Part shown: piece by piece, positions 7,679 through 38,885 of the stretch
Layout: each line of letters opens with the position of its first letter
How positions within the stretch are numbered: the stretch's first letter is position 1
Source: an uncultured Candidatus Saccharibacteria bacterium
GTDB taxonomy: Bacteria > Patescibacteriota > Minisyncoccia > UBA6257 > CAYRSR01
DNA length: 64,000 nt
Reading direction: 5' to 3'
NCBI GenBank assembly: GCA_964427275.1
Contig: CAYRSR010000004.1
Location: 2,769-66,768, forward strand
Made by a program: the position numbers and the translations under genes
The notes under the pieces: model-generated
Told to the model about the DNA's origin: nothing
The model's input: the letters and a program-made list of their open reading frames with translations, nothing else
Database searches by the model: none

Positions 7679-8974
7679 ATGAATAATCTAACCGGCTTAT
7701 TTTTTAAAACTTTAAATAGTGTTAAAAAGGATAAATTTTTAGTTAGTAGTGCTATTTTTTTTGGAGGCAGCCTTTTAGCAAGTGCTGGCAATTATCTTTT
7801 TCATTTTTTAATGGCTAGAATGTTAGCTATTGAAACTTATGGCGAGCTTCAATCTTTAATAGCAGTTTTTGTTATTATTGGTATTCCAGTTTCTGCTTTG
7901 TCTACTGTTTTAGTAAAATATACAGCTGACTTTAAGGCGAAGCAGCAGTTAGGTAAAGTTTTTAGCCTACTTTCTTTTTTTACTAAAAAAGCATTGTTTA
8001 TTGGAATAATATTTCTAGTAGTTTTTTTAATTTTTAATGGTTATATTGCAAATTTTTTAAAGTTAACTTCTGGCTTACCAGTAATGATTTTAGCTATTAG
8101 CTTCTTGGTAGTATTTCCACGTTCCATTAACTATGGCATTATAAGAGGATTAGAAAAATTTAAATTTGCTTCAATTGTTCTTGTTGCTGAAGTTTTTTTG
8201 AAGATAGTGTTGGCAGTATTGCTGGTAAAAATAGGACTTACTTTAAATGGAGTTGTTGGCGCTGTTGTTTTGGCTGGTGTGATTAGTTATTTTATTAGTT
8301 TTTTTCCTTTGAGGTATCTATTTAAAGAGAAAAAGGAAAAAATTGAAACTAGAAAAATTTTAAAATATTTTTTCCCAACTTTTTTTATTTTGTTGTTTAT
8401 AACCTTGCTTTATAATATGGATGTTGTTTTAGTTAAACACTTTTTTTCAGCTAAGACTGCTGGAGAATATGGAGCTCTGGCTGTAATTGGTCGAATTATT
8501 TTTTTTATTGGAGGGCCAATAGTATCGGTAATGTTTCCAATGACTGCTTCTGCCTATACCAGCAGAAGTAGCTCTACCAAAATTTTTAAAAAGAGTATTT
8601 TTTTGGTTAGCTTAGTTGGACTGATTGTTTTAGTTTTTTATTTTATTTTTCCAAATTTTGTTATTAAAATGTTGGTTGGCAGCAAGTTTTTAGCTATCGG
8701 CAAGTTTTTGGGTTGGTTTGGAATAGCAATGTTTTTATGTTCTTTGGTTAATCTGTTTTTGCAATATTTTCTTTCTATTGGTAAAACAAAGTGCGTTTAC
8801 TTGGTAGTAACAGGAGTATTGTTGCAGGTAGTGTTGATTTCAGCTTTTCATAATAGTTTATGGCAAGTTATCTTTATAATGAATTCGGTAATGTTTTTGA
8901 CATTAATGCTGTTGGTGGGGTATTATTTAAGGGTTAGTCGGCAAAAGGCTACGGTTATGAAGCCGGTATTGTGA
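7679..8974 (+). CDS. oligosaccharide flippase (Wzx/MOP-superfamily polysaccharide biosynthesis protein)
   Basis: 431 aa with ~12–14 TM helices, at the head of a glycosyltransferase cluster. Confidence 0.6.
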   Translation: MNNLTGLFFKTLNSVKKDKFLVSSAIFFGGSLLASAGNYLFHFLMARMLAIETYGELQSLIAVFVIIGIPVSALSTVLVKYTADFKAKQQLGKVFSLLSFFTKKALFIGIIFLVVFLIFNGYIANFLKLTSGLPVMILAISFLVVFPRSINYGIIRGLEKFKFASIVLVAEVFLKIVLAVLLVKIGLTLNGVVGAVVLAGVISYFISFFPLRYLFKEKKEKIETRKILKYFFPTFFILLFITLLYNMDVVLVKHFFSAKTAGEYGALAVIGRIIFFIGGPIVSVMFPMTASAYTSRSSSTKIFKKSIFLVSLVGLIVLVFYFIFPNFVIKMLVGSKFLAIGKFLGWFGIAMFLCSLVNLFLQYFLSIGKTKCVYLVVTGVLLQVVLISAFHNSLWQVIFIMNSVMFLTLMLLVGYYLRVSRQKATVMKPVL

Positions 8975-8996
8975 GGTGTAAAGAGTAAGGCGTAAT

Positions 8997-9416
8997 ATGG
9001 AAAATAATCAAAATAGAAAACCAATAACAAGCTTTAGAGATTTAGAAGTTTATCAAAATACTTACAAAGCAATGCTAATAGTGATGAAAGAAATTATATC
9101 AAAATTGCCTGATTCTGAGAAGTACGATCTAAAAGACCAATTAAGTAGATCTTGTAAGGCCATCCCGCGATTAATTGCAGAAGGATATGCAAAACGGCAC
9201 CAGAGAGCAGGATTTCAGAAATATTTAGATGATGCAATGGGCGAATGTAATGAAACTATTGTTAGTTTGGAACAATGTCGCGATATTTATGAGGTGGATA
9301 AAAGTTTGATTGATAGGTTAGTAGATGTTTATGACAAATCTGGAAGACAACTCTATAGATTGAGTATTGCCTGGGCTAATTTTAAAAGACGTCAAGCACG
9401 ACCATTGAAGAACTAA
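8997..9416 (+). CDS. four-helix-bundle protein (the so-called 23S rRNA intervening-sequence protein family)
   Basis: DLEVYQNTYKAMLIVMKEIISKLPDSEKYDLKDQLSRSCKAIPRLIAEGYAKR matches the TIGR02436-type four-helix-bundle family. Flanked by unusually GC-rich non-coding DNA. Confidence 0.6.
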   Translation: MENNQNRKPITSFRDLEVYQNTYKAMLIVMKEIISKLPDSEKYDLKDQLSRSCKAIPRLIAEGYAKRHQRAGFQKYLDDAMGECNETIVSLEQCRDIYEVDKSLIDRLVDVYDKSGRQLYRLSIAWANFKRRQARPLKN

Positions 9417-9538
9417 CAGTAACGAAATGTGTGTTTTGAAATCGTCAAATATTTAAAGGTTATGCTTACGAAGCCGCCAAACTTTACCGCTGAACGAAAC
9501 GGGCATCGTAACCCATAAACGTTAAACAATTTGCAGTT

Positions 9539-10519
9539 ATGAAAAAATTAATTTCAATTATAATTCCTGTTTACAACGAGGAGAAGAACATTCCTTTGGT
9601 CTATCAAGAGATATTAAAAATCTGGAGTGAATTAGAAAGTAAATATGATTATGAAATTATTTTTGTTGATGATGGAAGTCAGGATAAAAGTAGCGAAATA
9701 ATAGAAAATTTGGCTGAAGTTGATAAAAAAGTTAAGTATATTCAATTTTCTCGCAATTTTGGCAAAGAAATTGCTACTTCTGCTGGAATCTATTATTCCA
9801 AAGGTGATGCAGCAATTATACTTGATGCTGATTTACAACATCCTGTAGAGTTAATTCCAAAATTTATTGAAAAATGGGAAAATGGAGTTGATATTGTTGT
9901 AGGAATCAGACAGAAGAACAAAAAAGAAGGACTAATTAAAAGAGTTGGTTCATACTGGTTTTATAAGATAATGAACCTTATTGGAGAAACTAAAATTGTT
10001 CCGCGGGCAACTGATTATCGGTTAATTGATAAAAAAGTTATTCAAGAGTTTAATCGTTTTACTGAAAGAAATAGAATCACTCGAGGATTAATTGACTGGC
10101 TGGGATTTAAAAGAGATTACATTTATTTTAAAGCTAACCAGAGAAAGTTTGGTAAAGCTAGTTATAGTTTTTTAAAATTAGTTAAACTAGCTTTGTCTAG
10201 TTTTGTGTCTTTAAGTTTATTTCCCTTGAAATTTGCCGGGTATTTAGGAATCACTATCACTTTCTTTTCTGGTATTTTTGGGGTTTTTATTTTGGTTGAG
10301 AAATATATTTTGGACGACCCTTTAAATTTAAATATTACTGGCACTGCTTCTTTAGCAGTACTGATTTTATTTCTAATTGGCATAGTTTTAAGTAGTCTGG
10401 GTTTGATAACCTTGTATATTGCTAATATTTATAGCGAAGTTCTTAATAGGCCAATTTATGTGATTAAAAAAAAGAAAAATTTTAATTTAAAAGAAGATAA
10501 TAGGAAAACTAAAAATTGA
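9539..10519 (+). CDS. GT2 polyprenyl-phosphate sugar synthase (Dpm1/GtrB/ArnC-like) with C-terminal TM helices
   Basis: IIIPVYNEEKNI...VDDGSQD...DADLQHP GT-A core, two C-terminal TM helices, 326 aa. Confidence 0.75.
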   Translation: MKKLISIIIPVYNEEKNIPLVYQEILKIWSELESKYDYEIIFVDDGSQDKSSEIIENLAEVDKKVKYIQFSRNFGKEIATSAGIYYSKGDAAIILDADLQHPVELIPKFIEKWENGVDIVVGIRQKNKKEGLIKRVGSYWFYKIMNLIGETKIVPRATDYRLIDKKVIQEFNRFTERNRITRGLIDWLGFKRDYIYFKANQRKFGKASYSFLKLVKLALSSFVSLSLFPLKFAGYLGITITFFSGIFGVFILVEKYILDDPLNLNITGTASLAVLILFLIGIVLSSLGLITLYIANIYSEVLNRPIYVIKKKKNFNLKEDNRKTKN

Positions 10520-10571
10520 ATTTCTTTTTCTAGTAAAGTGCGGGTTTAAAAGAGTTTGAAGTTAAAATAAT

Positions 10572-11690
10572 ATGAAAATATTGTGGTTAACCTGGAAGGA
10601 TAGAAAGCATCCACTAGCTGGGGGTGCAGAAATAGTTAATGAAGAATTGGCTAAGAGATTAACTAAAAATGGTTATGAGATTATCTTTATTGTTAGTGGA
10701 TTTCCTGGTGCAGCTAAAAAAGAAATGATTAATGGTTATAAAGTAGTTCGCTTGGGAAATCGGTGGACAGTTTATTGGAGGGCATACCAATATTACAAAA
10801 AACACTTGTCTAATTGGCTAGATTTAGTAATTGATGAAATAAATACAGTTCCTTTCTTTGCAAAGTTTTACGTTAAAACGAAGAATATTTTATTCATTCA
10901 TCAACTTTGTCGGGAGATTTGGTTTTATGAAATGTTCTTTCCATTGAATTTAATTGGGTATTTATTAGAGCCTGTTTATTTATGGCTTCTGCGGGATAGA
11001 AAAGTAATCACTGTTTCCGAGAGCACCAAAAAAGATTTAATAAGGTACGGTTTTAAAAAAGAAAATGTTTATGTTATTTCAGAAGGAATAGAGATTGAGC
11101 CACTAAAAAATTTACCGTCGGTTAAAGAAGTTAAAGAGAAGAATCCAACAATTTTATTTTTAGGTACACTAAGAAGAATGAAAAGACCAGAACAGGTAAT
11201 TAAGGCTTTTGAACTTGTTAAAAAGAAGATAAAAAATTTAAAACTATGGATAGCTGGAGGAGGAAAAGGAAGATATTTTAAAAAGATAATGCGATTGATT
11301 AGAAACTCTAGGTATAAAAAAGATATTGTTTATTTTGGGAAAGTAAATAAAAAAAAGAAATATGAACTATTACTAAAGGCTCATTTACTTTGTGTTACTT
11401 CAGTTAAAGAAGGCTGGGGATTGGTTGTAGCTGAGGCTAATAGCCAAGGAACTCCAGCAATTGTTTACAACGTTGATGGCTTGCGGGATGCAGTGAAAGA
11501 TAATAAAACTGGTATTGTTTGCCAGCAAAATACTCCTGAAAATTTAGCTCAAAACATTATTGAATTATTGAGAAATAAAGAAAAATATGATTTTTTGAGA
11601 AAAAATGCTTGGGAACTATCAAAGGAAATAACTTTTGAAAAGAGCCTAGGACAGTTTAAAAAAATTGTTGAAGAAATAAAAAATGAATAA
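10572..11690 (+). CDS. glycosyltransferase family 4 (GT-B)
   Basis: C-terminal GT1/GT4 domain with an EGWGLVVAEANSQGTPAIV motif. Confidence 0.7.
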   Translation: MKILWLTWKDRKHPLAGGAEIVNEELAKRLTKNGYEIIFIVSGFPGAAKKEMINGYKVVRLGNRWTVYWRAYQYYKKHLSNWLDLVIDEINTVPFFAKFYVKTKNILFIHQLCREIWFYEMFFPLNLIGYLLEPVYLWLLRDRKVITVSESTKKDLIRYGFKKENVYVISEGIEIEPLKNLPSVKEVKEKNPTILFLGTLRRMKRPEQVIKAFELVKKKIKNLKLWIAGGGKGRYFKKIMRLIRNSRYKKDIVYFGKVNKKKKYELLLKAHLLCVTSVKEGWGLVVAEANSQGTPAIVYNVDGLRDAVKDNKTGIVCQQNTPENLAQNIIELLRNKEKYDFLRKNAWELSKEITFEKSLGQFKKIVEEIKNE

Positions 11691-12525
11691 TCAACCATTA
11701 GTTTCAATAGTAATACCAACAAAAAACTCAGGAAGATTTTTAGAAAGGTGTTTAGATTCAATAAAGAAACAGACTTATAGAAACATTGAAATAATAGTTG
11801 TTGATAATAAGAGTGATGATAATACAAGAAAAGTTGCTAGAAGATATACTGATAAAGTTTTTGTAGTAGATGCAGGGGAAAGAAGTGAGCAAATAAATTT
11901 CGGCATTAAAAAAAGTAAAGGGAAGTATGTTTATAGAGTAGACTCAGATTTTATTTTAGATTCTAATGTGGTTAAAGAGGCAGTTGAAAAGTGTGAAAAA
12001 GAAGGATATGATGCAATTTGCATTCATAATACTTCAGATCCTACCGTTAGCTTTTGGGCAAGAGTAAGAAAGTTAGAAAGAGATTGTTACAAGGGTGATG
12101 AGTTAAATGTAGGGGCAAGATTTTTTAGAAAGGATATTGTTAAAGAAATTGGAGGTTTTGATGAAAGGTTAGTAGCGGCGGAAGATTATGATTTTCATAA
12201 CCGGCTTTTAAAAGCAGGTTATAAAATTGGTAGAATTAAAGCGGAAGAAATTCACTTAGGGGAGCCAAAATCTTTGTGGGAAGTTGCTAAGAAACACTAT
12301 TATTATGGAAAGACAATAGTCAGATTCATTGAAAAAAATAGAGGGAGGGGAATAAAGCAACTAAATCCTATAAGACCTGCTTTTATCAGACATTGGAAAG
12401 AATTCGCAAGACATCCACTTTTAACTTTCGGCTTTATAGTTTATCAGTTGGTTAAATATTTTTCAGGAGGACTAGGATATTTAAAAGCAAAATTAGGTTG
12501 TAAGGTTTATAATAAGCCAAAATAG
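11683..12525 (+). CDS. glycosyltransferase family 2
   Basis: VSIVIPTKNSGRFLERCLDSIKKQTY...VVDNKSDD GT-A signature. Confidence 0.7.
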   Translation: MNNQPLVSIVIPTKNSGRFLERCLDSIKKQTYRNIEIIVVDNKSDDNTRKVARRYTDKVFVVDAGERSEQINFGIKKSKGKYVYRVDSDFILDSNVVKEAVEKCEKEGYDAICIHNTSDPTVSFWARVRKLERDCYKGDELNVGARFFRKDIVKEIGGFDERLVAAEDYDFHNRLLKAGYKIGRIKAEEIHLGEPKSLWEVAKKHYYYGKTIVRFIEKNRGRGIKQLNPIRPAFIRHWKEFARHPLLTFGFIVYQLVKYFSGGLGYLKAKLGCKVYNKPK

Positions 12526-12561
12526 GGCTTAGGTATAAATTTTTGAAGATAAATTAAACAA

Positions 12562-13479
12562 ATGACCAACCAACCATTAGTTTCTGTAGTTATTCCTACA
12601 TGTAATAGAGAGAGGAAGCTGACCAGACTGGTGAGTTCAATTTTAAACTCTAACTATCCTAAGAATAGATTAGAAATAATTGTAATTGATGATAATTCTA
12701 CAGATGCAACATATAGGGATATCGAAAAATATCCAAATATTACAATCGTAAGGAATAACAAAAAACTTTTTCCATCAAAGTTAAGAAATATTGGGATAAG
12801 AAAGGCAACCGGAAAGTATATTCTTTTTATTGATGATGACAATGTGGTTGAAAAAGACATGATTTTGAATCTGGTTTGTTTTATGGAAAATCATAAATCT
12901 GTGGGAATAGTAGCACCCTTAATGCTATACTATGGAAGTAATCTTATTTGGTGTGCTGGAATTAAAAGGAATATGCTTACCAGCCTTACCAGTTTTTTGC
13001 TTAATGGCAAGGACTATACAAAAGTAAAGCTACCAAAGATAATAGAGTCTGATGATTTTCCAAATTGTTTTATGACCAGAAGAGATATAATTCTGAAGTA
13101 TGGTATTTATTTTGATGAGATACTTTTTCCTATTCATTACGAAGAATCGGACTTTTGTCGAAAGGTTCATTCAAAAGGTTATAAAATAGTTATGTTCTCT
13201 AACGCTAAGGTTTGGCATGATGTTGGACTACCAGGAAAGCCTCATAATATATTTGATAACCAAAGCCCTCAGCGTTTATTTTACACTGCCCGTAACAGAA
13301 TACTATTTCACAAAAAATATACTCCCTGGTATAAATATATCTTGTTTCTTTTCTTATTTTTACCACTTCTAACTTTCTATTATCTTTATAAAGGTATTGT
13401 ATCTAATACAGAGAATAAAATCTTAAAGATAACTTCGTTCCTTAATGGTGTCTGGAAGGGCATTTTTATGTCAGTATGA
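12562..13479 (+). CDS. glycosyltransferase family 2 with C-terminal TM segment
   Basis: VSVVIPTCNRERKL...VIDDNSTD...DDDN, with a hydrophobic C-terminus. Confidence 0.7.
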   Translation: MTNQPLVSVVIPTCNRERKLTRLVSSILNSNYPKNRLEIIVIDDNSTDATYRDIEKYPNITIVRNNKKLFPSKLRNIGIRKATGKYILFIDDDNVVEKDMILNLVCFMENHKSVGIVAPLMLYYGSNLIWCAGIKRNMLTSLTSFLLNGKDYTKVKLPKIIESDDFPNCFMTRRDIILKYGIYFDEILFPIHYEESDFCRKVHSKGYKIVMFSNAKVWHDVGLPGKPHNIFDNQSPQRLFYTARNRILFHKKYTPWYKYILFLFLFLPLLTFYYLYKGIVSNTENKILKITSFLNGVWKGIFMSV

Positions 13480-14615
13480 AGATAGCTATAGTTTCAAAGT
13501 ATGCTCCTGCTGATACTGGCGGTTTAGAATCTGTGGTAAATGGAATAATAAGTGTTATTAGAAGGTCAGGTTTTAATTTTGATATAACTGTCTTTTATCA
13601 GAGAAAAAGAAGAGGTGATAAATTTACTTCTGAAGAATATAAGTCCAAAGAGGTAATGGTGCCGGACATACCAGTTGTTTCGGAGGTTATTTATAATTTT
13701 ATCTGTGGAATAAAATGTGCTTCGGGGAACTACGATATTGTACATACTCATGGTGTTACAGGTGCTGGATATGCTCTTATAAGAAGATTTATTAGAGATA
13801 AAGCCAAATTTATTCATACTTTCCATGGAATTTCTTACAAGTCTTTAGAGTGCTATGTTAAAAGATTTGGATTTCCAGGAAATGTATTGGTTCAAATCTA
13901 TAGAACTATCATGTCTTACCTTGAAAAATTAGCCGGAAGGAAATGTGATGTTGCTGTTGCGGTATCTGAGGGAGTTAAAAGGGACCTGGTAAAGTATTAT
14001 GGAATACCTGAAAGTAAAATAACTGTTATACATAATGCTGTTGATACAGAAGTTTTTTACCCGATGTCGAAAGATAAAGCCAAAGAGCTATTGAAGCTGG
14101 ATAAGAGCAAAAAGTATATTCTTTTTGTGGGTAAAGAAGCTTTTAGAAAAGGGATGGACATAGCTATTAATGCTATGAGGTATTTAAAATTTGACAATAT
14201 TGTGCTATTAATAGTAGGTCCAGCTAAGATTGACTTTAAAGAAGATAACATTATAAGCTTAGGAGAGCTTTCAAGAAAGAAAATGGTTTTTGTTTATAAT
14301 ACTGCAGAGGTTTTAATATTACCTTCAAGATACGAAGGGCATCCTATTACAGCCCTGGAGGCACTATCTTGCGGTCTTCCGTTGATTGTATCTAGAGAGT
14401 CAAATGTAGAGATTATTAATAAGAATCAAGGAATTGTAATTAATGAAAATAAGCCAGAATTATTTGCTACTGAAATAAAAAAGCTTTTGAAAAGTGAAGA
14501 ATTAAAAGAAATGTCAAACTCGTGTCGAAAGCTAGCAGAAAAATATTCGGTTAATAATCAATACAAGAAATACTTAGAATTATATTTGAGTTTTTATGAA
14601 TCAAGAAACTATTAG
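13476..14615 (+). CDS. glycosyltransferase family 4 (GT-B)
   Basis: The EGHPITALEALSCGLPLIVS motif is characteristic of GT4 retaining glycosyltransferases. Confidence 0.75.
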   Translation: MKIAIVSKYAPADTGGLESVVNGIISVIRRSGFNFDITVFYQRKRRGDKFTSEEYKSKEVMVPDIPVVSEVIYNFICGIKCASGNYDIVHTHGVTGAGYALIRRFIRDKAKFIHTFHGISYKSLECYVKRFGFPGNVLVQIYRTIMSYLEKLAGRKCDVAVAVSEGVKRDLVKYYGIPESKITVIHNAVDTEVFYPMSKDKAKELLKLDKSKKYILFVGKEAFRKGMDIAINAMRYLKFDNIVLLIVGPAKIDFKEDNIISLGELSRKKMVFVYNTAEVLILPSRYEGHPITALEALSCGLPLIVSRESNVEIINKNQGIVINENKPELFATEIKKLLKSEELKEMSNSCRKLAEKYSVNNQYKKYLELYLSFYESRNY

Positions 14616-15321
14616 CTCCTGGTACAATAATTTTTATACCCGCAAAGAAGTAAATAAGAAATTGTCCCCATGGAGGCGTACAACATTTCAGCTTATCTGT
14701 GAACTAGGCTTGAAAGGTAAAATACTGGATGTTGGTTGTGGTGATGGAGGGTTGCTATTTGAACTAATTAAATCTTCAATGTTTGGTAAGGAAGATATTT
14801 ATGGTATTGATATATCTAAATCTGCGATTAATATTTCACGAGCCCGATTGGGAATACCAGAGGAGCATCTTAAAACTTATGATATTGAATCTAGTGAATT
14901 ACCGTTTCGGCAGGAATTTTTTGATATAGTGGTAATGAATGATGTTATAGAACATCTTCAACATCCTTTTAAGAGCTTACCTAAGACACTAAAAATGCTT
15001 AAAGTAAAAGGCCACTTAGTTATTTCTTTCCCTAATTATACAAATTTACCTTGGCTTGCACTTAGAATATTGGCAGAGAAATTAAAAAGACCGGGGTGGA
15101 TAGTCCTTCAACCTGTTGACCATATATTTTTTTATAGAGGACTTAAGGATTTACTAGTTAAAAGGTTTGGTTTAAAGTTTATTACTAGCAGGGGCAGTGT
15201 CTTTTTCCCGCCGCTATTATATAAATTTGAACCTCGGATTTTCAGTTTAGTTTTGAATAAACTTGGATTAGCTTTTCTTTCATTTCACCCTGTTTTAGTT
15301 TTTAAGAAAAATGAGAAATAA
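14596..15321 (+). CDS. class I SAM-dependent methyltransferase
   Basis: ILDVGCGDGGLLFEL motif I and a VVMNDVIEHL motif. Confidence 0.75.
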   Translation: MNQETISSWYNNFYTRKEVNKKLSPWRRTTFQLICELGLKGKILDVGCGDGGLLFELIKSSMFGKEDIYGIDISKSAINISRARLGIPEEHLKTYDIESSELPFRQEFFDIVVMNDVIEHLQHPFKSLPKTLKMLKVKGHLVISFPNYTNLPWLALRILAEKLKRPGWIVLQPVDHIFFYRGLKDLLVKRFGLKFITSRGSVFFPPLLYKFEPRIFSLVLNKLGLAFLSFHPVLVFKKNEK

Positions 15322-16903
15322 TACTATTATCGTAATTTCTGGTTCTTCAGGTTCGGGTAAGACAACTATATCCAGAAAACTATACTTTACCTTGTCTACT
15401 TGCGGCTTGGATGCTGTATATAGAGAGTGGGAAAATAATCCTGATGATTATTTCTTACTTAAAATACCGCTGAAGTTATTAATAAAGTTTTTTCCTAGAA
15501 TACATAAATCCAATCTGGAGCGTTTGGTTCAGGGACCTAAAAACAATAAGTTTCCATTAAGGTTTAAGATATGGCCATTTTTTATCTGGTTAGATCGATT
15601 GGCCGAGATATTTTACTTGAGATTTTTTAAGCCGCATAATGTAACAGTAATTCATAGATACATTCATGGAGTATTGATTGCTCTCCTTGGATATTATGGA
15701 TGGGGAAAAAATGAACTCATAGACAAGCTTTATTTTCCAAAACCAGATATTTTCATTATGTTGGATACTACACCAGAAGAGGTTATGAAGCGTGGCGCAG
15801 ATTATCCGACCCTTAAAGATGCTGAATATTGGAGAAAAAATTTCCTAAATATTGCAGATAAAAATGGTTATCCAATAGTTGACTCTTCGTATGATGTAGA
15901 AACTACATTTAGAAATTGCTTAAGAGTAATTGTTTCAAGAATGATGAAAAATCAGGAAGATATGGTTCTGCACCTACTTAGTGATCCATATAACTACTAC
16001 GATAGGGAATTATTAGAGAGAATAGATTTTAGAAAGCTGGATTATAATTATTTGTACTCCTATGTATTAGAACTTGGAATTGGCTTTCAGGCACTTGGCT
16101 CATTGCTTGAGTATGATATACCAGAAATATGGAGGAATAAGTTCAGTAATAAATTACTTGAACTTGAAAATTATTCCAGAAAAGTATCGAGTGCAATCAA
16201 AGAAATTCACAATCTTTTTAAGCAAAACAATATTAAATATGTAATGTTTAAGACCAATAGGCCATATAAGCATGTTTCTAGGGATATTGATATTTTGGTA
16301 GATGATTATAAGAAGGCATTTTCTGTACTTAAAAAAGATGGATGGGTTACAGACCTGGAGCAAATTCTACTTAGTGAAGTTCATTTAAAAAAAGGCAATA
16401 TAGTATTGGACTTGCATGATAAAATAGAAAGGTTACCTAAGAAACTTCTTCTTGAAAATGTTATTAAAAATAAAGAAGAAATTAATATTCCAAAGCCAGA
16501 ATTAGAGGTACTATCAATATTACTTGAATGTATAGAGGATTTGCAAATGGATTTAGAAGATATTCACTATATCAGGGGATTGGTTAAAGAGAATGATATA
16601 AACTGGAAGGAAGTATACAATCTTTCCAAAGTTTTAGGTGTTTATAAAAAAATAAATCAACTTCTTTCAATTGTTAGACTTAAAGACATTTTTTATTATT
16701 CTGGAAAATTAAGTAGAAAATTACCCGAGATTAAAGACTCTGGAATTGACTTTCAAAAGAGTTTAATATCTTTAGTTTATCAATTTAGATTAGCAAAAGT
16801 TAAAAAGAGATTATTATTTTTAAAATTAGCAATTAGACGCTTAATAAGCAGTCCTTTTAAGACAATTAGGGCGGGCTTTAAGAGATATATTTTTAGAAGG
16901 TAA
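15311..16903 (+). CDS. P-loop kinase domain fused to NTP_transf_5-like nucleotidyltransferase domain protein
   Basis: N-terminus IIVISGSSGSGKTTISRKL (Walker A; dNK/thymidylate-kinase-like). C-terminal half carries the YKHVSRDIDILVDDY nucleotidyltransferase signature. Confidence 0.45.
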   Translation: MRNNTIIVISGSSGSGKTTISRKLYFTLSTCGLDAVYREWENNPDDYFLLKIPLKLLIKFFPRIHKSNLERLVQGPKNNKFPLRFKIWPFFIWLDRLAEIFYLRFFKPHNVTVIHRYIHGVLIALLGYYGWGKNELIDKLYFPKPDIFIMLDTTPEEVMKRGADYPTLKDAEYWRKNFLNIADKNGYPIVDSSYDVETTFRNCLRVIVSRMMKNQEDMVLHLLSDPYNYYDRELLERIDFRKLDYNYLYSYVLELGIGFQALGSLLEYDIPEIWRNKFSNKLLELENYSRKVSSAIKEIHNLFKQNNIKYVMFKTNRPYKHVSRDIDILVDDYKKAFSVLKKDGWVTDLEQILLSEVHLKKGNIVLDLHDKIERLPKKLLLENVIKNKEEINIPKPELEVLSILLECIEDLQMDLEDIHYIRGLVKENDINWKEVYNLSKVLGVYKKINQLLSIVRLKDIFYYSGKLSRKLPEIKDSGIDFQKSLISLVYQFRLAKVKKRLLFLKLAIRRLISSPFKTIRAGFKRYIFRR

Positions 16904-16925
16904 AATTTATACATAAAACAATTAA

Positions 16926-19900
16926 ATGATACCAATACTATCAAAATTACTGAATTGGATTAATTCTAAAGACAGGCGAGATTATTTTTTAGCTGGGATA
17001 ATTATATTAGCTCTTGTTTTTTTAGAATACCGGCTACTTATCTTTGAAAGTATTAACTACATAGGAAAAGGATATTTTAAATTCTCAAAAATCCCGTTTA
17101 CTTTAAAAGAATCATTTCAGTTTTTGCCCTTAATTTTAATAGATTGGGCTTCGCTTCCAGGAGGATGTGCTGTAACATTGCTAGCCGGACTTTATCATCT
17201 TTTGGGAGGATTAGCTATCTTTGCATTTATAAGAATCTACTTAAAAGACCTTTTTAAGGAAAATAATCTCTTTTTACCTGCTTTTCTTGGAACTTTATTG
17301 TTTATGTTTTATCCCTGGAACACCACAGGTGATAACTTTCCCACGTTGGTTATGGTTAGATTTTTATTTCCATTGGCCCTTCTTTGTGCATTTAAGGGTA
17401 TAAAACATAATTCTACCTGTGCATTACTGCTTTCCGGAATAATAATTTCACTTGCAACTTTAGCTGACCCACGTGCTATTGTGTTTTTTATTCCAATTAT
17501 TTTTTTTGTAATTTTACTGCCACATTTATTGATAAGGGAAACAGGAAATCTCAAGTTATACCTTTTTCGATTTATAGGTCTTTTAGTTATTTCTACAATT
17601 TTTTCTTCTCTTGAGATTGCATATAGAGTTTTAAAATCATTCTCAGCTGGAAAAGCAAGTATTCCTACAACAGTGGCATCTGCATTTAATCCAGATTCAT
17701 TTATTCCAAATTTTAAATATGCAGATTTAATATCAACTTTTCAGGGTATTTCTTTCCTTGCAACAGGAGAACAATTTTTAAAAATTCTAAAAGAAATTCC
17801 GTTTCTTTATAACTTGTTTTTAATAGCTCCATTATTAGCAGTTGCTGTTATTTTTATGATTCTTCTCAAATATCATCGAACTCAGAAGTTGAGGGCTCAT
17901 ATTTTATCATTGGTTCTTTTTATATTAATAGTTATTGGACTATTTTCTAGATTGGTTCCGAATAAGTTGCCACTATTTCCAAGAATAGCTTGTAGTTTTG
18001 TAGGGTCTAAAATACCAGGTATCATAACTTCTCTATTTTTATTGTTCCGAACCGAAAGATTTTTGAATCTTTCAATGATGATTTTTTTGGGATTATCAGC
18101 TGGAATAAGCATAAAACTATTGCGGAATAGTCGAAATTCTTTCTTTAAAATACTTTTTGTTAGCGGTGTTTTAGTTTCTGTGGTAGTTGTGTGGGGTATT
18201 CCAGTTATCATGGATGGACACGGACTGGTTAATAGAGGAGGAATAATTTTTGAGATTGACGAAGAATCTTTAGCGTTGTCAAAGGTAATTAGTGATATAA
18301 AACCATACTCAGTGATAGATAAATCAATTCCTTTACAAAAAGGATCTGGCGGATTACCAAATGCACATTTCTTATCTAATGTTGAAGCTGGTGTAAAGCA
18401 ATTTCTGGTAAGGTATAGCACAGAAACATCTAAAGGATTTAGAAGTCCAATTCTAATTGATAAGGATTATGATTTTTTGGCGCACTTGTTAAATCAGATG
18501 GGAGTTAAATACTTAATTTTGAATGGATATAGGGCTGAGCCAAATGACCCAGCAATGTTTAAAAAAGAACTTAACCAATCTCCCTATTTTAGATTTAGAA
18601 GTAAGTCAGGTAGTGTATATGGCTATGAAATCCAGAAAGAAATAAAACCCAAAATTGCTGATGGCCTGTTTGTTCTAGGCGGGCTGGAGGATTATCGAAA
18701 AGCATATCCGTTTTTTGAAAAACAAAACTTAGATGTTGCCCCAATATTTCTTGATGCTCCAGTAGATTTTACTGTTTTAAAAAGATTTCACTTTCCATTG
18801 CTAGTAAGTACTCATAAAACCAAAACTGACTTAATAGCAAGCTTTTGTATTTCACATAAAGACGCAGAAATACTAACTCCTGCAAAGTGGAAAACTGGAA
18901 CTTGGAATAGATTTGTTCGCTGGTCTCCGGGGTACATTATGGATACAATAAGCGGAATGTGGTCTCACATACTGCCAGACCTTATAAACTATGAATGGAG
19001 TTACACCTATAGACCGGACTATGGCAATGTCTTTGTAATAAATGCTGAAAGTTCAATTTCAACCGAAGTAAATTTAAATCCCGGTAAATATAGAGTTTTG
19101 ATACGTGTCTTAATGAATCCTAGAGGAGGTGTTATAAATTTAAAATTAGGAGGTTTCTCTAAGGATATTGTTACAAAATGGGATTATGATAGCAGTGAGT
19201 TTATCTGGAAAGACCTTGGAGTATATGATTTTACTGGTTCTAAACTTAAGGTCATTCTGAGAAGTTTTGAAGGGGTAAATGCAGTTAATTTAATAGTTGC
19301 TATTCCACAAAAGGATTGGGAAGAAATAACAAAGAAGGTAAAACAATTTATAAAGGAGCGTGAAATTATATATATTGTGGATCCAGAGCGACAGAGAACT
19401 AATCCTACAGATGGTTCTGTTGCAACAGAAATGAAATTACTAAAATCAGGTAGTTATAAAGCTTCATCCCTTTCTAATGTAAAGTTTGAAATAATTCAGG
19501 ATTCAATACTACAGTCAAATAACCAAATTACATACTTTCAGGGTAAATATATAACCATTTCTTTTCCTAAATATAGAGATATATTGTTTTCTTCTTTTTT
19601 TGAAAAAGAAGAAGGTTTGTGGACTGATCTAGATTCTAGATTTTCAGTCTCCTATGTTAATGATGGATATGTAGGCAAATCAATTCTTGTTTCAACTACC
19701 ACTCAACAACCTGGTAGCTGGAGCTGGATTAAGGGACCATTAATTGAGGTTAAACCTAATCATAAATATCAGTTTAAATCTGCTATGAAGTGGGAAAATG
19801 TTGTTCAATCTCACATATCTATTGATGGTATTAAAAAAGATGGTTCAGTTGTTAGATTGGGTCTTTTGCCTTCAGGAAAAGATGGTGAATCAGATTGGGT

Positions 19901-20450
19901 TGAGTATTCAACCATTAAAGAAATTCCTTCGGATATAGTAAAGGTTAGGTTTGTGCTTAATGCTGGCTGGGCTGAAAAAAGTGATAAGCCGGCTAAAACA
20001 TGGTTTGATAACATATTGATAAAAAGACTGAAGACCTCAAAAAAAGGTAATCAGGCCATATTGCTTCATACTTCTGAATTAGGTCAAATTTATAATAACT
20101 CAGATTTCAAAATAGTTTCCTATAAGATTAATGAATACAACAAGACTCATAAAGGATATGATATCAGTTTGAAAGGAAGTGGTGAAAAAGTCTTGTCAAT
20201 TCCAGAAATTTATGATGGCATGTGGAAATTAGAAAATTCAACATTTCAATCTATAGCTGTTCCTGTGTATTATATCCTTAATGGTTTTGCGATAAACTCC
20301 TTTGACAATCAAATTCATCATTTTACTCTTTATAACACTAAAGAAAGATTGGATAGAATATTAGAAAGTTTTTACTTTACTAGTTTAATTTTCATATTGT
20401 TTGGAATGATTGTTTTTTATTGGATTAAAAGAAGTCAATTTTTTAAATGA
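16926..20450 (+). CDS. large polytopic membrane protein with ~700-aa extracytoplasmic domain and C-terminal TM anchor (putative GT-C-type glycosyltransferase/polymerase)
   Basis: 1174 aa. ~12 TM helices within residues 1–430, a long soluble region with a CBM-like C-terminal module (GSWSWIKGP...VRFVLNAGWA...WFDNI), and a final TM helix. Confidence 0.4.
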   Translation: MIPILSKLLNWINSKDRRDYFLAGIIILALVFLEYRLLIFESINYIGKGYFKFSKIPFTLKESFQFLPLILIDWASLPGGCAVTLLAGLYHLLGGLAIFAFIRIYLKDLFKENNLFLPAFLGTLLFMFYPWNTTGDNFPTLVMVRFLFPLALLCAFKGIKHNSTCALLLSGIIISLATLADPRAIVFFIPIIFFVILLPHLLIRETGNLKLYLFRFIGLLVISTIFSSLEIAYRVLKSFSAGKASIPTTVASAFNPDSFIPNFKYADLISTFQGISFLATGEQFLKILKEIPFLYNLFLIAPLLAVAVIFMILLKYHRTQKLRAHILSLVLFILIVIGLFSRLVPNKLPLFPRIACSFVGSKIPGIITSLFLLFRTERFLNLSMMIFLGLSAGISIKLLRNSRNSFFKILFVSGVLVSVVVVWGIPVIMDGHGLVNRGGIIFEIDEESLALSKVISDIKPYSVIDKSIPLQKGSGGLPNAHFLSNVEAGVKQFLVRYSTETSKGFRSPILIDKDYDFLAHLLNQMGVKYLILNGYRAEPNDPAMFKKELNQSPYFRFRSKSGSVYGYEIQKEIKPKIADGLFVLGGLEDYRKAYPFFEKQNLDVAPIFLDAPVDFTVLKRFHFPLLVSTHKTKTDLIASFCISHKDAEILTPAKWKTGTWNRFVRWSPGYIMDTISGMWSHILPDLINYEWSYTYRPDYGNVFVINAESSISTEVNLNPGKYRVLIRVLMNPRGGVINLKLGGFSKDIVTKWDYDSSEFIWKDLGVYDFTGSKLKVILRSFEGVNAVNLIVAIPQKDWEEITKKVKQFIKEREIIYIVDPERQRTNPTDGSVATEMKLLKSGSYKASSLSNVKFEIIQDSILQSNNQITYFQGKYITISFPKYRDILFSSFFEKEEGLWTDLDSRFSVSYVNDGYVGKSILVSTTTQQPGSWSWIKGPLIEVKPNHKYQFKSAMKWENVVQSHISIDGIKKDGSVVRLGLLPSGKDGESDWVEYSTIKEIPSDIVKVRFVLNAGWAEKSDKPAKTWFDNILIKRLKTSKKGNQAILLHTSELGQIYNNSDFKIVSYKINEYNKTHKGYDISLKGSGEKVLSIPEIYDGMWKLENSTFQSIAVPVYYILNGFAINSFDNQIHHFTLYNTKERLDRILESFYFTSLIFILFGMIVFYWIKRSQFFK

Positions 20451-20454
20451 TTCT

Positions 20455-20865
20455 ATGAGAGAGATAAAATTAACTATCAGGATACCAGAATTACTCGAAA
20501 TAAAGAAGTTTATAAAACTTCAAGTTATCAAGATTTTTAAAAGAACCAAAGAAGACATAATTAACAAGAAGGTATATACAGTTTTATTGATAGTCATTTT
20601 TGGCTTATTGTTTTGGAAATTTGCTTTTAAAGTAGCTATTTTATGGACAATCTTTTGGCTTTTTTTGTTCTATAACTGGGAAGATAGGGTTTTAGCTGGA
20701 ATTGCTTTGGTTCTTTTAGTTGGTTGCCCGATATTTTTGATTACTGGAAGAAAAGTTATTGCTGAACAAATAGCAATTTATGCTTATTACTTTATAGTGA
20801 TGACTGTAGCTTTGCAGATTGCAAAATTATGTGGCTTAGACAGAAGAATAAGATTGCATATTTAG
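20455..20865 (+). CDS. small membrane protein (3–4 TM)
   Basis: Hydrophobic 136-aa product between two large membrane proteins. The ORF-track start (20410) overlaps the upstream gene, so the start is taken at the ATG at 20455. Confidence 0.4.
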   Translation: MREIKLTIRIPELLEIKKFIKLQVIKIFKRTKEDIINKKVYTVLLIVIFGLLFWKFAFKVAILWTIFWLFLFYNWEDRVLAGIALVLLVGCPIFLITGRKVIAEQIAIYAYYFIVMTVALQIAKLCGLDRRIRLHI

Positions 20866-22487
20866 TTTATACTTTTTTAGCAATTTCTATTTTATTACCC
20901 CTGTTGAAACCAGGATATATTTTCGCTATGGATATGGTTTTTACTCCTCGTTTAAGATGGCCATCAGAATTTAATTTTCCCGGTGCTGTTTTATATTTGT
21001 TAAACTTTATTTTACCCAGTCAGATTATTCAAAAAATTCTTTTGTTTTTAGTCTTGTTTTTGGGTGGTGTCGGGATGCACAAATTAGTTCCAGTAAGGAA
21101 TGAGTTTGCTAAATACTTTGCCGGCATTTTTTATATTTTTAATCCATGGATTTATTCCAGGTTTTTGTATGGGCATTTATACTTATTAATTGCTTATGCT
21201 CTGATGCCATTTGTAGTTAAAACAATTTTTAAATTTTTGGACCAGATAAATTTCAAAATTGCCCTGAAGTTAAGTTTATGGCTGATTTTAATTGGTTTTA
21301 TCAGTCATCATTTTATTTTTATGGCAGTTTTATTTTTTGTGATTTCTGTTCTGGTTTATATTTTAAAGAACTTAAAAGATTTGCCTAAAATTTTAGAAAT
21401 TTTAAAATTTACAACTTTAATTGGATTAATTTTTTTAATTTTATCAAGCTGGTGGATTGCTCCTTATTTCAATAAAAGTTCTCCTCAAGGGCAATTTATT
21501 CAGCGGTCCATTGGTTTAAGTGACCTAAAGGCTTTTCAAACTGAACCGGATGCAAAGTATGGGGTATTACTAAATGTTTTGGCAATGTATGGCTTTTGGG
21601 GGGATAGGACCGAACAATATGTGGTTCAGAAGGATGTAGTTCGAGGCTGGTTTTGGTTATTTTTGATTATCCTAGGGCTGGTAATATTTGGCGCAATAAG
21701 TAAGTTAAAGGAATATAAGGCAATTGTTTTAATTCTAATTGGAATTATTTCCTTTGTTTTATCAGTTGGATTTGCTTATCCACCATTTAGGTTATTGATA
21801 AATTTTTTAAATCAGAATCTTTTTATTTTTAAGGGTTTTAGGGAGTCCCAGAAGTTCAGTGCTTTGTTAGTTTTAGTTTATGCTTATTTTGGAGCTTTGG
21901 GAATTAACAGCATAGTTGAAGGTTTAAAAGTTAGAAAGTTAGAAGGTTTAAAAGTTAGAAAGTTAGAAAGTTTAAAAATGTTTTTGTTAGCTTTTTTGAT
22001 TATTTTGCCAATTCTTTATTCTCCAATGATGTTTTGGGGCTTTAGAGGACAGCTTTCTGTTTCTGATTATCCATCAGATTGGTTTAGGGCAAATGAAATT
22101 TTAAATCAAGACCAAGATAATTTTAAGGTTTTGTTTTTCCCCTGGCATCAATATATGTTATTTAGTTTCACTAATGGTAAAGTAATTGCCAATCCGGCAC
22201 CAAATTTTTTTGATAAACCGGTTATTGCTGGTGATAATATGGAATTAGCAGAAATTTACACTCAGAGTAGAAGACCTATATCTAAATTTATTGAAAATGA
22301 AATTCTGGCTAAAAGAGAAATCATTAATAATTTAGGTCAGATACTTAAACCTCTGAGTATCAAGTATGTTATATTAGTTAAACAAGAAGATTGGCAAACC
22401 TATGGTTTTTTGGATTGGCAAACTGATTTAAAACAAATTTATGATTCTAAGCATTTAAAAATTTATCAAAATCAAAGCTGGAGATAA
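20829..22487 (+). CDS. polytopic membrane protein, GT-C-like glycosyltransferase candidate
   Basis: 552 aa with >10 TM helices and an in-frame tandem repeat EGLKVRKLEGLKVRKLESLK. Lies at the downstream end of the glycan cluster. Confidence 0.4.
   Translation: MWLRQKNKIAYLVYTFLAISILLPLLKPGYIFAMDMVFTPRLRWPSEFNFPGAVLYLLNFILPSQIIQKILLFLVLFLGGVGMHKLVPVRNEFAKYFAGIFYIFNPWIYSRFLYGHLYLLIAYALMPFVVKTIFKFLDQINFKIALKLSLWLILIGFISHHFIFMAVLFFVISVLVYILKNLKDLPKILEILKFTTLIGLIFLILSSWWIAPYFNKSSPQGQFIQRSIGLSDLKAFQTEPDAKYGVLLNVLAMYGFWGDRTEQYVVQKDVVRGWFWLFLIILGLVIFGAISKLKEYKAIVLILIGIISFVLSVGFAYPPFRLLINFLNQNLFIFKGFRESQKFSALLVLVYAYFGALGINSIVEGLKVRKLEGLKVRKLESLKMFLLAFLIILPILYSPMMFWGFRGQLSVSDYPSDWFRANEILNQDQDNFKVLFFPWHQYMLFSFTNGKVIANPAPNFFDKPVIAGDNMELAEIYTQSRRPISKFIENEILAKREIINNLGQILKPLSIKYVILVKQEDWQTYGFLDWQTDLKQIYDSKHLKIYQNQSWR
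21918..21977 (+). repeat. 24-bp tandem repeat (x2.5) inside CDS
   Basis: gaaggtttaaaagttagaaagtta repeated perfectly, then a partial copy. Confidence 0.8.
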
Positions 22488-22538: not shown

Positions 22539-22576
22539 AGGAGTAAACAAGGTCGAATACATTGGCAAGCAAATTT

Positions 22577-37834: not shown

Positions 37835-37884
37835 CAAAAGAACTTTAAAGTTGTAAAGGGCGATTATTGTTATTAAATTTTAAA

Positions 37885-38687: not shown

Positions 38688-38701
38688 TTCTTTGAAATTT
38701 T

Positions 38702-38777: not shown

Positions 38778-38800
38778 GAACAGCAATTCAGTAAATTATT

Positions 38801-38874: not shown

Positions 38875-38885
38875 CATAGTGTGGA

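Follow-up and report, generated by a model that had tools for sequence, protein, structure and literature searches.

Organization of the twelve-gene operon

The window, a stretch of 64,000 nucleotides from a low-GC, Patescibacteria-like bacterium of the candidate phyla, carries between positions 7679 and 22487 twelve co-directional, near-contiguous ORFs on the + strand (ORF listing). These are the same tightly packed genes, at the same coordinates, as those described in a first-pass annotation, and all the domain calls made there held in Pfam, NCBIfam and PDB-sequence searches. The intergenic gaps are 122 nt or less, and neighboring ORFs overlap at six junctions. The operon is flanked by lepA and an Mrr-like gene on one side and by HAD-secY-adk-map on the other. 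Its GC content (29-34%) and GC skew are the same as those of the remaining window, indicating that the operon is native rather than a compositionally foreign island. The genes and features are listed below, including homologs in collinear order on a distant metagenome contig (L089).

7679..8974, + strand: Wzx-like flippase of the MOP superfamily, 431 aa, about 12 TM helices (PF01943, E=1.9e-15; PF13440, E=5e-12; hydropathy)
8997..9416, + strand: four-helix-bundle protein, 23S rRNA IVS protein family (PF05635, E=5e-19; TIGR02436, E=4e-15)
9539..10519, + strand: GtrB/Dpm1-type polyprenyl-phosphate hexose synthase, GT2 domain and two C-terminal TM helices (PDB 5EKP, NCBIfam, hydropathy)
10572..11690, + strand: cytoplasmic GT4 (GT-B) glycosyltransferase (PF00534, E=2e-40; PF13439, E=5e-15; L089 homolog, 266 bits)
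11683..12525, + strand: cytoplasmic GT2 (GT-A) glycosyltransferase (PF00535, E=4.5e-28; L089 homolog)
12562..13479, + strand: cytoplasmic GT2 (GT-A) glycosyltransferase (PF00535, E=1.1e-32; L089 homolog, 297 bits)
13476..14615, + strand: cytoplasmic GT4 (GT-B) glycosyltransferase (PF00534, E=1.8e-26; PF13439, E=1.1e-22; L089 homolog)
14596..15321, + strand: class I SAM-dependent methyltransferase (PF13847, PF13489 and PF08241, E=1e-15 to 1e-17; L089 homolog, 217 bits)
15311..16903, + strand: fusion of a P-loop kinase-like domain (residues about 1-220) and an NTP_transf_5 nucleotidyltransferase domain (about 270-455; PF14907, E=7.9e-11)
16926..20450, + strand: AftD-like large GT-C glycosyltransferase, 1174 aa (GT-C module, beta-sandwiches, C-terminal TM helix)
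19596..20021, + strand: CBM4/16/22-like beta-sandwich within the 1174-aa protein (aa about 891-1032)
20410..20865, + strand: small membrane protein, 151 aa from TTG (136 aa from an alternative ATG at 20455), 3-4 TM helices (hydropathy)
20829..22487, + strand: MmpA-like GT-C glycosyltransferase, 552 aa, about 11 TM helices and a C-terminal alpha/beta domain (aa 416-552, ~140 aa)
22562..23380, + strand: secreted or anchored protein with fn3 (Pur_ac_phosph_N-like) and PG_binding_1 domains (PF16656, E=9e-9; PF01471, E=9e-8; PF00041, E=3e-6)
23499-25853: DUF5667 and Kazal protein

The product of the third gene had been taken for a Dpm1/GtrB-like polyprenyl-phosphate sugar synthase, in agreement with its match over residues 5-310 to Synechocystis GtrB sll0501 (PDB 5EKP; E=1.2e-67) and with the two C-terminal TM helices at residues 235-253 and 272-290 (hydropathy). 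The PDB-sequence search also gave ArnC (E=2e-35) and DPMS (E=6e-18), while the best NCBIfam match was streptococcal PgfS at 231 bits, below its cutoff of 500, with ArnC at 151 bits. No match to GtrA (PF04138) was detected in any scanned ORF, the 151-aa protein being searched to E<=5. The methyltransferase is a probable sugar O-methylase. The kinase-like part of the fusion protein is dTMP-kinase-like by a weak PF02223 match, and residues 105-207 match thymidylate kinase (PDB 5XBH; E=1e-4). The four-helix-bundle gene is probably a passenger inside the operon; the protein was not found in the 80 genome loci compared, and two copies are present in a related Parcubacteria locus (L087).

Two paralogous GT-C proteins and their small partner

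Structural comparison with solved members gave a GT-C fold for both of the large polytopic proteins, as had been proposed from their membrane topology and the neighboring synthase gene. The two are paralogs (hhalign 99.8%, E=2e-29), and each consists of about 11 TM helices followed by a soluble domain (hydropathy, AF2 secondary structure). Since the N-termini are positively charged, loop 1 and the soluble domains of both should lie outside the membrane.

The 1174-aa protein begins with a membrane GT-C module (aa 1-430), followed by a soluble alpha/beta domain of the GT-C type (about 446-660), CBM-like beta-sandwiches (about 700-1137) and a final TM helix (1138-1173). Its topology thus comprises about 11 N-terminal TM helices, ~720 soluble residues and a single C-terminal TM helix (hydropathy, AF2 secondary structure). 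This is the architecture of AftD, the mycobacterial arabinofuranosyltransferase D (PDB 6W98/6WBX; PF11847), with its GT-C module, CBM-like beta-sandwiches and C-terminal membrane re-entry. The profile of the 1174-aa family reaches AftD itself (E=3.6e-5); in Pfam, the window protein gave no PF11847 match, the only hit being PMT_2 at 20.9 against a cutoff of 26.1. The two proteins differ in that their identity is only about 11%, AftD has five C-terminal TM helices in place of one, the acyl-carrier-protein partner of AftD has no evident counterpart at this locus, and the essential Asp in the first loop of AftD is not clearly matched in the window protein. The first-loop acidic motif G-x-G-[D/E]-F of the closest homologs is GKGYF in the window protein. 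Other conserved acidic residues of this family, E33, E62, D73, D136 and D181, are candidates for a catalytic or metal-ligand role. No DPA-pathway gene (UbiA-type PRPP transferase, DprE1/E2) was detected among the window ORFs scanned. Because the genes for decaprenyl-phospho-arabinose are absent from the locus, the GT-C donor is likely to be the polyprenyl-P-hexose made by the GtrB homolog, rather than arabinose.

The 552-aa protein matched the MmpA model of NCBIfam (NF053599) in full length (residues 11-548, 161.9 bits, E=2.2e-47), a score that falls below the curated cutoff of 210 bits for this equivalog model. Nine other members of the 552 family were scored, and all except an Actinomycetota member (L053; 219 bits) were also below the cutoff. 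Against PF11847 (GT-C_AftD), the whole-sequence score was 30.7 bits (gathering 26), but no single stretch passed alone. Within the family, all of the 43 sequences have D35 in the first extracytoplasmic loop, and basic residues are likewise invariant across bacteria and archaea.

Like the 552-aa protein, MmpA (Rv0226c / NCgl2761 / Cgp_3165) is a polytopic protein of ~500 aa whose homology to AftD covers TM helices 1 to 11 of the latter, and the genes of both lie close to those for a large AftD-type paralog, a methyltransferase and a putative glycosyltransferase (2026 preprint for MmpA; window genes for the 552-aa protein). MmpA is studied in the context of trehalose mycolate acetylation and transport, together with TmaT, MtrP and CmpL/MmpL3 in a mycolic-acid-producing host (PMC8698533; 2026 preprint). 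In contrast, the host of the 552-aa protein is without mycolic acids or trehalose mycolates, and no TmaT-like (acyltransferase_3) or MmpL-like gene was detected in the locus or among the window ORFs scanned.

As proposed for Corynebacterium MmpA, the 552-aa protein might be a non-enzymatic scaffold or facilitator for glycolipid transport across or out of the membrane. Its nearest named family is the 'MmpA family trehalose lipid delivery protein', deletion of mmpA in C. glutamicum changes trehalose-mycolate acetylation and transport (PMC8698533), and glycosyltransferase activity has not been demonstrated for MmpA (PMC8698533; PMC11175481). We consider this role highly improbable, because the invariant first-loop Asp and basic residues in bacteria and archaea are typical of catalytic GT-Cs, because carriers of the family lack mycolic acids, and because the Foldseek comparison in the 2026 preprint itself suggests that MmpA and Cgp_3166 may be glycosyltransferases. 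The context of the MmpA family, which includes a GtrB synthase, a flippase, Leloir glycosyltransferases and an AftD-like paralog, also points to glycosyltransferase activity.

The 151-aa protein matched no Pfam or NCBIfam family. In a jackhmmer search of about 4000 ORFs, 48 of its 62 matches directly abutted a 552-type gene on the same strand, corresponding to 48 of the 80 genome loci, and in one locus (L052) the 151-type and 552-type proteins are apparently fused. What is conserved at its core is a two-TM hairpin that carries the motif A-x-Y-A-Y-Y...I-G-V. By this linkage the 151-aa protein counts as a conserved partner of 552-type GT-Cs, and it may be an accessory subunit. Such a partner was previously unnoticed, and structural or biochemical work on AftD/MmpA-like GT-Cs should include it.

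Conservation of the cassette and comparison with known systems

Comparison of genomes indicated that the island is conserved as a unit in its core: the cassette of Wzx, GtrB, GT4 (following GtrB), GT2, large GT-C and small GT-C recurs in Saccharibacteria, Chloroflexota, Actinomycetota and archaea, and the block from the first GT4 through GT2, GT2, GT4, methyltransferase and kinase/nucleotidyltransferase to the 1174-type gene is collinear in L089. Homologs of the flippase were found in 33 and those of GtrB in 29 of the 80 loci. In about 25 loci of the Saccharibacteria type, the flippase gene immediately precedes the GtrB gene, both being on one strand, and this adjacency is strict in Saccharibacteria; in about 25 loci the GT-C pair has a GtrB homolog of 50-57% identity upstream. 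A methyltransferase gene precedes the large GT-C gene in 13 of the 80 loci, and the kinase-like domain recurs upstream in 4 of them; homologs of the fusion protein are encoded directly upstream of the 1174-type gene in L088 and L089 (414 bits).

The core cassette is thus present in many uncultured bacteria and archaea, where it is uncharacterised. The earlier remark that no characterised homolog is obvious agrees with our searches, in which no close one was found, and no publication on the AftD/MmpA-like GT-C family outside Mycobacteriales was found either. Envelopes of Patescibacteria (CPR) are almost uncharacterised, although such ultrasmall organisms rely on touching the surface of their hosts. 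In those Saccharibacteria that are now genetically tractable, this conserved cassette for glycan assembly, native to the chromosome, offers a concrete target.

The large AftD-like GT-C, the small MmpA-like GT-C and the two-TM partner are carried by Patescibacteria, Chloroflexota, non-mycolate Actinomycetota and archaea (Methanoperedens, DPANN and Bathyarchaeota). We tentatively raise the possibility, short of an even chance, that this trio, usually fed by Wzx and GtrB, is an ancient and widespread machine for an unrecognised class of envelope glycopolymer, and that the essential aftD-mmpA-GT-mtrP locus of Mycobacteriales derives from it. If so, MmpA would be a polyprenyl-phosphate-sugar-dependent glycosyltransferase, and its effect on trehalose-mycolate transport would be indirect. 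The placement of the essential, poorly understood mycobacterial MmpA within a large family provides a testable hypothesis for MmpA and for its connection with AftD.

The same logic, a GT2 polyprenyl-phosphate sugar synthase, a flippase and a GT-C outside the membrane, is followed by the three-component extracytoplasmic systems, GtrA/GtrB/GtrC, CsbB/GtcA/YfhO, GacI/GacJ/GacL, ArnC/ArnT and polyprenyl-phosphoribose synthase/MATE flippase/GT136. Those systems use a GtrA/SMR-type flippase, or a MATE-family flippase has been proposed, whereas the only candidate here is the Wzx-like MOP protein. They are add-on modules with one GT-C, whereas the present locus has two paralogous GT-Cs and a small partner whose family is undescribed, all set among four Leloir glycosyltransferases. 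The GtrC, YfhO, GacL and ArnT families also differ from the AftD/MmpA-like GT-Cs.

Proposed assembly of an envelope glycoconjugate

The surface-glycan reading of the first-pass annotation is supported. The twelve-gene operon probably builds a cell-surface sugar polymer, centered on the two related membrane glycosyltransferases. On the cytoplasmic face, the two GT4 and two GT2 Leloir transferases would lengthen a lipid-linked primer, the priming enzyme being encoded elsewhere; the methyltransferase would modify one sugar, and the kinase/nucleotidyltransferase fusion may add or activate a substituent, the weakest step of the model. The GtrB-type synthase would transfer hexose from a nucleotide sugar to polyprenyl phosphate. 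The Wzx-like flippase would then move the lipid-linked intermediate(s), oligosaccharide or polyprenyl-P-hexose, across the membrane, as related three-component systems flip their donor with a MATE/MOP-family protein. Outside the membrane, the CBM-like beta-sandwiches of the 1174-aa enzyme may hold the glycan acceptor during sugar transfer from the lipid-linked donor, and the 552-aa enzyme with its 151-aa partner would carry out a second, distinct transfer. The finished product, a wall-linked polymer or lipoglycan, would remain part of the envelope.

It is improbable that the operon is a routine locus of the Wzx/Wzy type for capsule, O-antigen or teichoic acid, with the two large membrane proteins as polymerase and ligase. 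Repeat-unit loci do typically include a Wzx-like flippase, four Leloir glycosyltransferases and a methyltransferase, and Wzy_C/TPR proteins and TagF-like genes are located near related Parcubacteria loci. However, only Wzx was found here; Wzy_C/O-antigen ligase, polyprenyl-phosphate phosphoglycosyl transferase (Bac_transf/Glycos_transf_4), chain-length regulator (Wzz) and ABC exporter were absent among the window ORFs scanned, which included all but about a dozen small ORFs. Furthermore, the two membrane proteins are AftD/MmpA-family GT-Cs, not Wzy, WaaL or SEDS, and the locus has no close characterised homolog among those searched.

We favor, with somewhat better than even confidence, a glycoconjugate assembled partly outside the cytoplasmic membrane around the trio of large GT-C, small GT-C and membrane partner. 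Possible acceptors are wall polymers, lipoglycans and proteins. In the streptococcal Pgf system (PgfS, PgfM1 and PgfM2), a synthase is paired with two GT-C membrane proteins, of another family than those here, and surface proteins are the targets (PMC12041528). Protein glycosylation at the present locus is a rather unlikely alternative: the 552-aa GT-C and its small partner would act like an oligosaccharyltransferase or PMT on secreted proteins, for instance the neighboring fn3/PG-binding protein, transferring a sugar or a pre-assembled, Wzx-flipped oligosaccharide, with the variable Leloir glycosyltransferase genes setting the glycan. Between the GT-Cs and STT3, PglB or AglB, no sequence-level relationship was detectable; the WWDYG motif is absent, with only an invariant P-W-H-x-Y in a comparable position, and the first loop has no evident DXD pair.

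Directly after the operon, two secreted proteins had been predicted, and each indeed carries an N-terminal hydrophobic signal or anchor (hydropathy); Ser/Thr-rich acceptor regions were not detected in these neighboring proteins. The fn3/PG-binding protein is a clade-specific neighbor of the 552-type GT-C and a candidate partner or substrate. In L001, L003, L086 and L087, the gene for the 552 homolog is directly followed by that for a homolog of this protein, at 45-48% identity, and fn3 proteins occupy the immediately downstream position in L005, L008, L018 and L071.

The glycan operon and its borders

Twelve ORFs on the + strand are aligned at 7679-22487, separated by gaps of no more than 122 nt and overlapping at six junctions in the ORF listing. 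The domain assignments made for these genes in the first-pass annotation were all confirmed by Pfam, NCBIfam and PDB-sequence searches.

Genes of the operon and its upstream neighbor
6846-7676, Mrr-like protein of 276 aa: weak ATP-cone, core of the Mrr restriction-endonuclease type and an AF1548-like domain at the C-terminus
7679-8974, + strand, Wzx-like MOP flippase
8997-9416, + strand, four-helix-bundle '23S rRNA IVS' protein (PF05635/TIGR02436)
9539-10519, + strand, GtrB-type GT2, putative polyprenyl-phosphate hexose synthase
next four genes, + strand, GT4, GT2, GT2 and GT4, in that order
next gene, + strand, SAM methyltransferase
next gene, + strand, fusion of a P-loop kinase-like domain and NTP_transf_5
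16926-20450, + strand, 1174-aa membrane protein
20410-20865, + strand, 151-aa membrane protein
20829-22487, + strand, 552-aa membrane protein

The GT2 at 9539-10519 is homologous over its full length to Synechocystis GtrB (5EKP, E=1.2e-67), and also to ArnC and DPMS, and carries two C-terminal TM helices. The operon is flanked on the upstream side by lepA and the Mrr-like gene, and on the downstream side by the genes for an fn3/PG-binding protein (22562-23380), a DUF5667/Kazal protein and a HAD protein, followed by secY, adk and map. GC content is about 32% across the entire window, and because the composition of the operon is the same as that of its flanks, the operon is native, and a horizontally transferred foreign 'island' was rejected. 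The Mrr-like gene may belong to the same transcript as the glycan operon, because it shares 4 nt with the end of lepA and stops 2 nt short of the Wzx gene. The scan for promoters and terminators detected fewer sites than in shuffled controls and was uninformative for the operon boundaries. Antisense ORFs within the locus (e.g. 17897-18421, - strand) were rejected as genes, being wholly inside well-supported + strand genes.

Genes of the four-helix-bundle family were observed inside glycan operons in the window (8997-9416) and twice in the Parcubacteria locus L087 (7531-7884 and 9618-9986), and the 80 genome loci contained none. Apparently they are passengers that recur in such operons. A routine Wzx/Wzy locus is an unlikely explanation of this gene set, because neither Wzy nor a priming phosphoglycosyl transferase nor a chain-length regulator was found in the window ORFs scanned, and because the membrane proteins are unlike Wzy or WaaL.

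Two GT-C proteins related to AftD and MmpA

The 1174-aa and 552-aa proteins, originally proposed to be extracytoplasmic glycosyl transferases or polymerases, were identified as GT-C proteins by profile comparison and by matches to the AftD and MmpA families. In the profile-profile comparison the two families were aligned over 504 columns with 99.8% probability (E=2e-29), the 552-aa protein being equivalent to residues 21-575 of the 1174-aa protein. As judged from sequence, the two are paralogous GT-C enzymes. The profile of the broad 1174-family alignment, A2, matched M. abscessus AftD (6W98/6WBX, E=3.6e-5), which was reached by this profile only: the PDB search with the A1 profile returned nothing meaningful, and that with single sequences gave no match for either protein. 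The 1174-family profile also matched a CBM4 (1GUI, E=0.019). The 552-aa protein matched Pfam GT-C_AftD at 30.7 bits and, over its whole length, scored 161.9 bits with the NCBIfam model NF053599 ('MmpA family trehalose lipid delivery protein'), for which the cutoff is 210. MmpA (Rv0226c/NCgl2761) is a membrane protein of Mycobacteriales, essential or important, the biochemistry of which is unknown (PMC8698533, PMC11175481). In a 2026 preprint, MmpA was likened to the part of AftD that comprises its first 11 TM helices, and mmpA is described as sharing its locus with aftD, the gene of the methyltransferase MtrP and that of a putative glycosyltransferase. The family matches therefore indicate that an AftD-like and MmpA-like pair is encoded in an organism without mycolic acids, and both window proteins belong to one GT-C lineage with MmpA and AftD. 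Neither was filed as an MmpA member, as the score stays below the curated cutoff and the context is not that of MmpA, nor as AftD proper, as no genes of its donor pathway were found in the window ORFs scanned and identity is about 11%. The MmpA model gave 130-219 bits on nine 552-family members from all taxon groups, and the curated cutoff was passed by one protein, from an Actinomycetota MAG (locus L053). The homolog search seeded with this protein retrieved environmental relatives only, and no MmpA of Mycobacteriales.

Residue conservation was taken over 43 diverse members of the 552 family. D35, within an L-D-M-V-F-T-P motif right behind TM1, is invariant, as are K69, R338, K342 and a P-W-H-x-Y motif; R111, H161, D/E259, E339 and E472 are almost invariant. 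The positive charge of the N-termini would place loop 1 outside the membrane. In the 1174-aa protein, the loop-1 G-x-G-[D/E]-F of the nearest homologs reads GKGYF, and the candidate acidic residues conserved elsewhere are E33, E62, D73, D136 and D181. The residues of AftD essential by experiment are K39, D41, E251, K361 and D474, to which the conserved positions of the 552 family are close in numbering; the one correspondence visible in the HMMER alignment is that of the AftD segment K-L-E-P-L-I-R with the F-R-T/E-P motif of the family.

Distribution, gene order and the small membrane partner

The word-indexed search for the 552 family gave 133 matches, and 281 loci were confirmed in GTDB contigs with one genome per species, these counts not being independent events because many loci come from related MAGs. 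The taxon split, read from record titles, covers 80 of the 281 loci: Patescibacteria (32; Parcubacteria, Saccharibacteria, Gottesmanbacteria and Falkowbacteria), archaea (22; Methanoperedens, Methanosarcinales, DPANN, Bathyarchaeota and Hadarchaeota), Chloroflexota (10), Actinomycetota (5) and others (11, some probably mis-binned). For the 1174 family, exhaustive HMMER search detected 399 representatives with E-values up to 1e-3, of which 41 stay at or below 1e-30, superseding a word-indexed search with 3 matches. The window was assigned to Patescibacteria because its closest homologs come from Parcubacteria or Patescibacteria MAGs, because it encodes the DUF5667 protein and because of its GC content of about 32%. 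An identical 26,356-bp contig is present in two MAGs of different phyla (L020 and L022; Cloacimonadota and Melioribacteraceae), and several Saccharibacteria-type cassettes carry the labels Nevskiaceae, Bacillota or Gammaproteobacteria, which suggests that the public records contain binning errors.

Homologs of the window proteins were mapped on the 80 loci with tblastn, phmmer and two family HMMs. Among the 61 loci having at least 4 kb upstream, a GT-C paralog of at least 750 aa was located upstream on the same strand in 42, directly adjacent in 28 of these, and a shorter or truncated paralog was found in a further 11. Same-strand neighbors in the 80 loci include GT4 (34), Wzx (33), GtrB (29; 50-57% identity in about 25 Saccharibacteria), GT2 (23) and methyltransferase (13). 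The canonical order in Saccharibacteria is wzx, gtrB, GT4, GT2, (GT4), large GT-C and small GT-C; the complete genome CP025011 (L025) carries Wzx, GtrB, GT4, a pyruvyl transferase and proteins of 953, 553 and 165 aa. A recognizable cassette exists also in Actinomycetota (L052), Methanoperedens (L068 and L081), another archaeon (L033) and Dehalococcoidales (L055).

The 151-aa protein matched 62 among about 4000 ORFs in an iterative search, and 48 of the 62 lie right next to a 552-type gene of the same orientation. The gene for the small protein comes first in Parcubacteria-type, archaeal and Chloroflexota loci; in Saccharibacteria it follows the 552-type gene. Such specific positions argue against drift to generic hydrophobic proteins. 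The conserved core consists of two TM helices in a hairpin and bears an A-x-Y-A-Y-Y...I-G-V motif; no Pfam family was matched at E<=5, leaving a GtrA-type flippase unsupported. One 781-aa ORF of the Actinomycetota MAG locus L052 (9608-11953) apparently combines an MmpA-type GT-C, matched by the MmpA model from residue 141, with the small-partner domain; this may be a Rosetta-stone fusion or may reflect a misassigned start codon. The order in L053 is rSAM, MT, GT4, MT, AftD-like (923 aa), small partner fused to LytR_C, MmpA, PGM and Wzx, and this locus links the environmental cassette with the family named MmpA. Its fusion gene (8791-9879), next to the MmpA-type GT-C on the upstream side, codes for 362 aa, with an N-terminal part like the small partner and a C-terminal LytR_C cell-envelope domain; its position relative to mmpA is that of LmcA (Rv0227c/NCgl2760) in Mycobacteriales.

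Scanning metagenomes with A3, a narrow alignment, gave three loci. The metagenome contig L089 encodes a 1174-aa homolog about 37% identical and is collinear with the window over GT4, GT2, GT2, GT4, MT, kinase/NTase and 1174; in L088, kinase/NTase is still located beside the 1174-type gene. The closest 552 relatives (57-63% identity; L001, L003, L086 and L087) retain the small protein, the 552 homolog and the fn3/PG-binding protein (45-48% identical). Their sugar genes are quite unlike those of the window, including TagF-like proteins, CDP-alcohol transferases, several methyltransferases and a pyruvyl transferase, and no GtrB was found within 10 kb. Upstream of the small-partner/552 pair they share a conserved protein of about 396-401 aa, for which neither a Pfam family at E<=5 nor a window counterpart was found.

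The 396-401-aa protein in the Parcubacteria relatives
L001, 8240-9439
L003, 7014-8219
L086, 6535-7734
L087, 8090-9280

Based on gene-order conservation, two conserved modules are thus joined in the window, one of GTs, MT, kinase/NTase and the AftD-like protein, the other of the small partner, the MmpA-like protein and the fn3/PG-binding protein. Both are preceded by a Wzx-GtrB head that many lineages share. In the 80 loci an fn3 protein lies immediately downstream of the GT-C in four, two of them archaeal. The main rival explanation, participation of the 552-aa enzyme in OST- or PMT-like protein glycosylation, draws on the constancy of the trio while glycan genes vary, the specific position of the fn3 neighbor, the top structural matches to OSTs and a C-terminal domain like that of AglB; we regard it as possible, though rather doubtful.

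Proposed function and other features of the window

The best-supported interpretation is a multi-component system by which a glycoconjugate is put together across the cytoplasmic membrane and on its outer side. Folds, homologies and synteny were observed; from sequence, predicted structure and synteny we infer the donors, acceptors, order of steps and roles of the methyltransferase, kinase/NTase, Wzx and small protein. The logic is akin to mycobacterial LM/LAM and arabinan assembly and to Gram-positive three-component glycosylation. Cytoplasmic Leloir transferases would make a lipid-linked glycan, to be modified by the methyltransferase, and GtrB would produce polyprenyl-P-hexose. The MOP flippase would export the lipid-linked intermediates, in agreement with the precedent of a MATE/MOP-family flippase for a monophosphate donor (PMC11127046). 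After export both GT-Cs would work outside the membrane, the small one jointly with its two-TM partner, and the large one gripping the glycan acceptor with CBM-like domains, as proposed for AftD.

The general kind of system, a GtrB-type synthase plus GT-C, is well known, as is the AftD architecture. In the literature, we found no description of the AftD/MmpA-type family outside Mycobacteriales, of its conserved tandem pairing together with a small partner, or of its combination with Wzx-GtrB in a cassette that is spread over CPR bacteria, Chloroflexota and archaea. The cassette provides a concrete target for envelope biogenesis in Patescibacteria and leads to a hypothesis open to experiment, namely that MmpA acts as a glycosyltransferase.

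Other features of the window
23499-25853, 784-aa secreted protein with N-terminal DUF5667, a long helical region rich in Lys and Glu, a serine-protease-inhibitor domain of the Kazal type (E=1e-8) and a segment rich in Cys
29883-31085, 400-aa ORF without Pfam family, between the map/infA-like region and prfB
31088-31822, prfB (RF-2-like), 244-aa release-factor ORF
49471-50175, HAD hydrolase, possibly beta-phosphoglucomutase-like
56251-58509, GH65 glycoside phosphorylase of the maltose/trehalose/kojibiose phosphorylase type (PF03632, E=1e-106)

Kazal domains are uncommon in bacteria. The DUF5667/Kazal protein shows no association with the GT-C family, DUF5667 being a neighbor in one of the 80 loci (L016, opposite strand). 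The GH65 phosphorylase is carried by a small-genome CPR-like organism. The prfB ORF appears N-terminally short, because its match begins at position 101 of the PCRF profile, which could mean that the gene is split or that its reading involves a programmed frameshift. Gene orientation flips from + to - at about 39.3 kb, just past a tRNA cluster for Tyr, Thr, Thr and Trp (37750-39292), the region of the switch being about 39300-49000, and GC skew falls from about +0.2 to about 0 across 40-56 kb.
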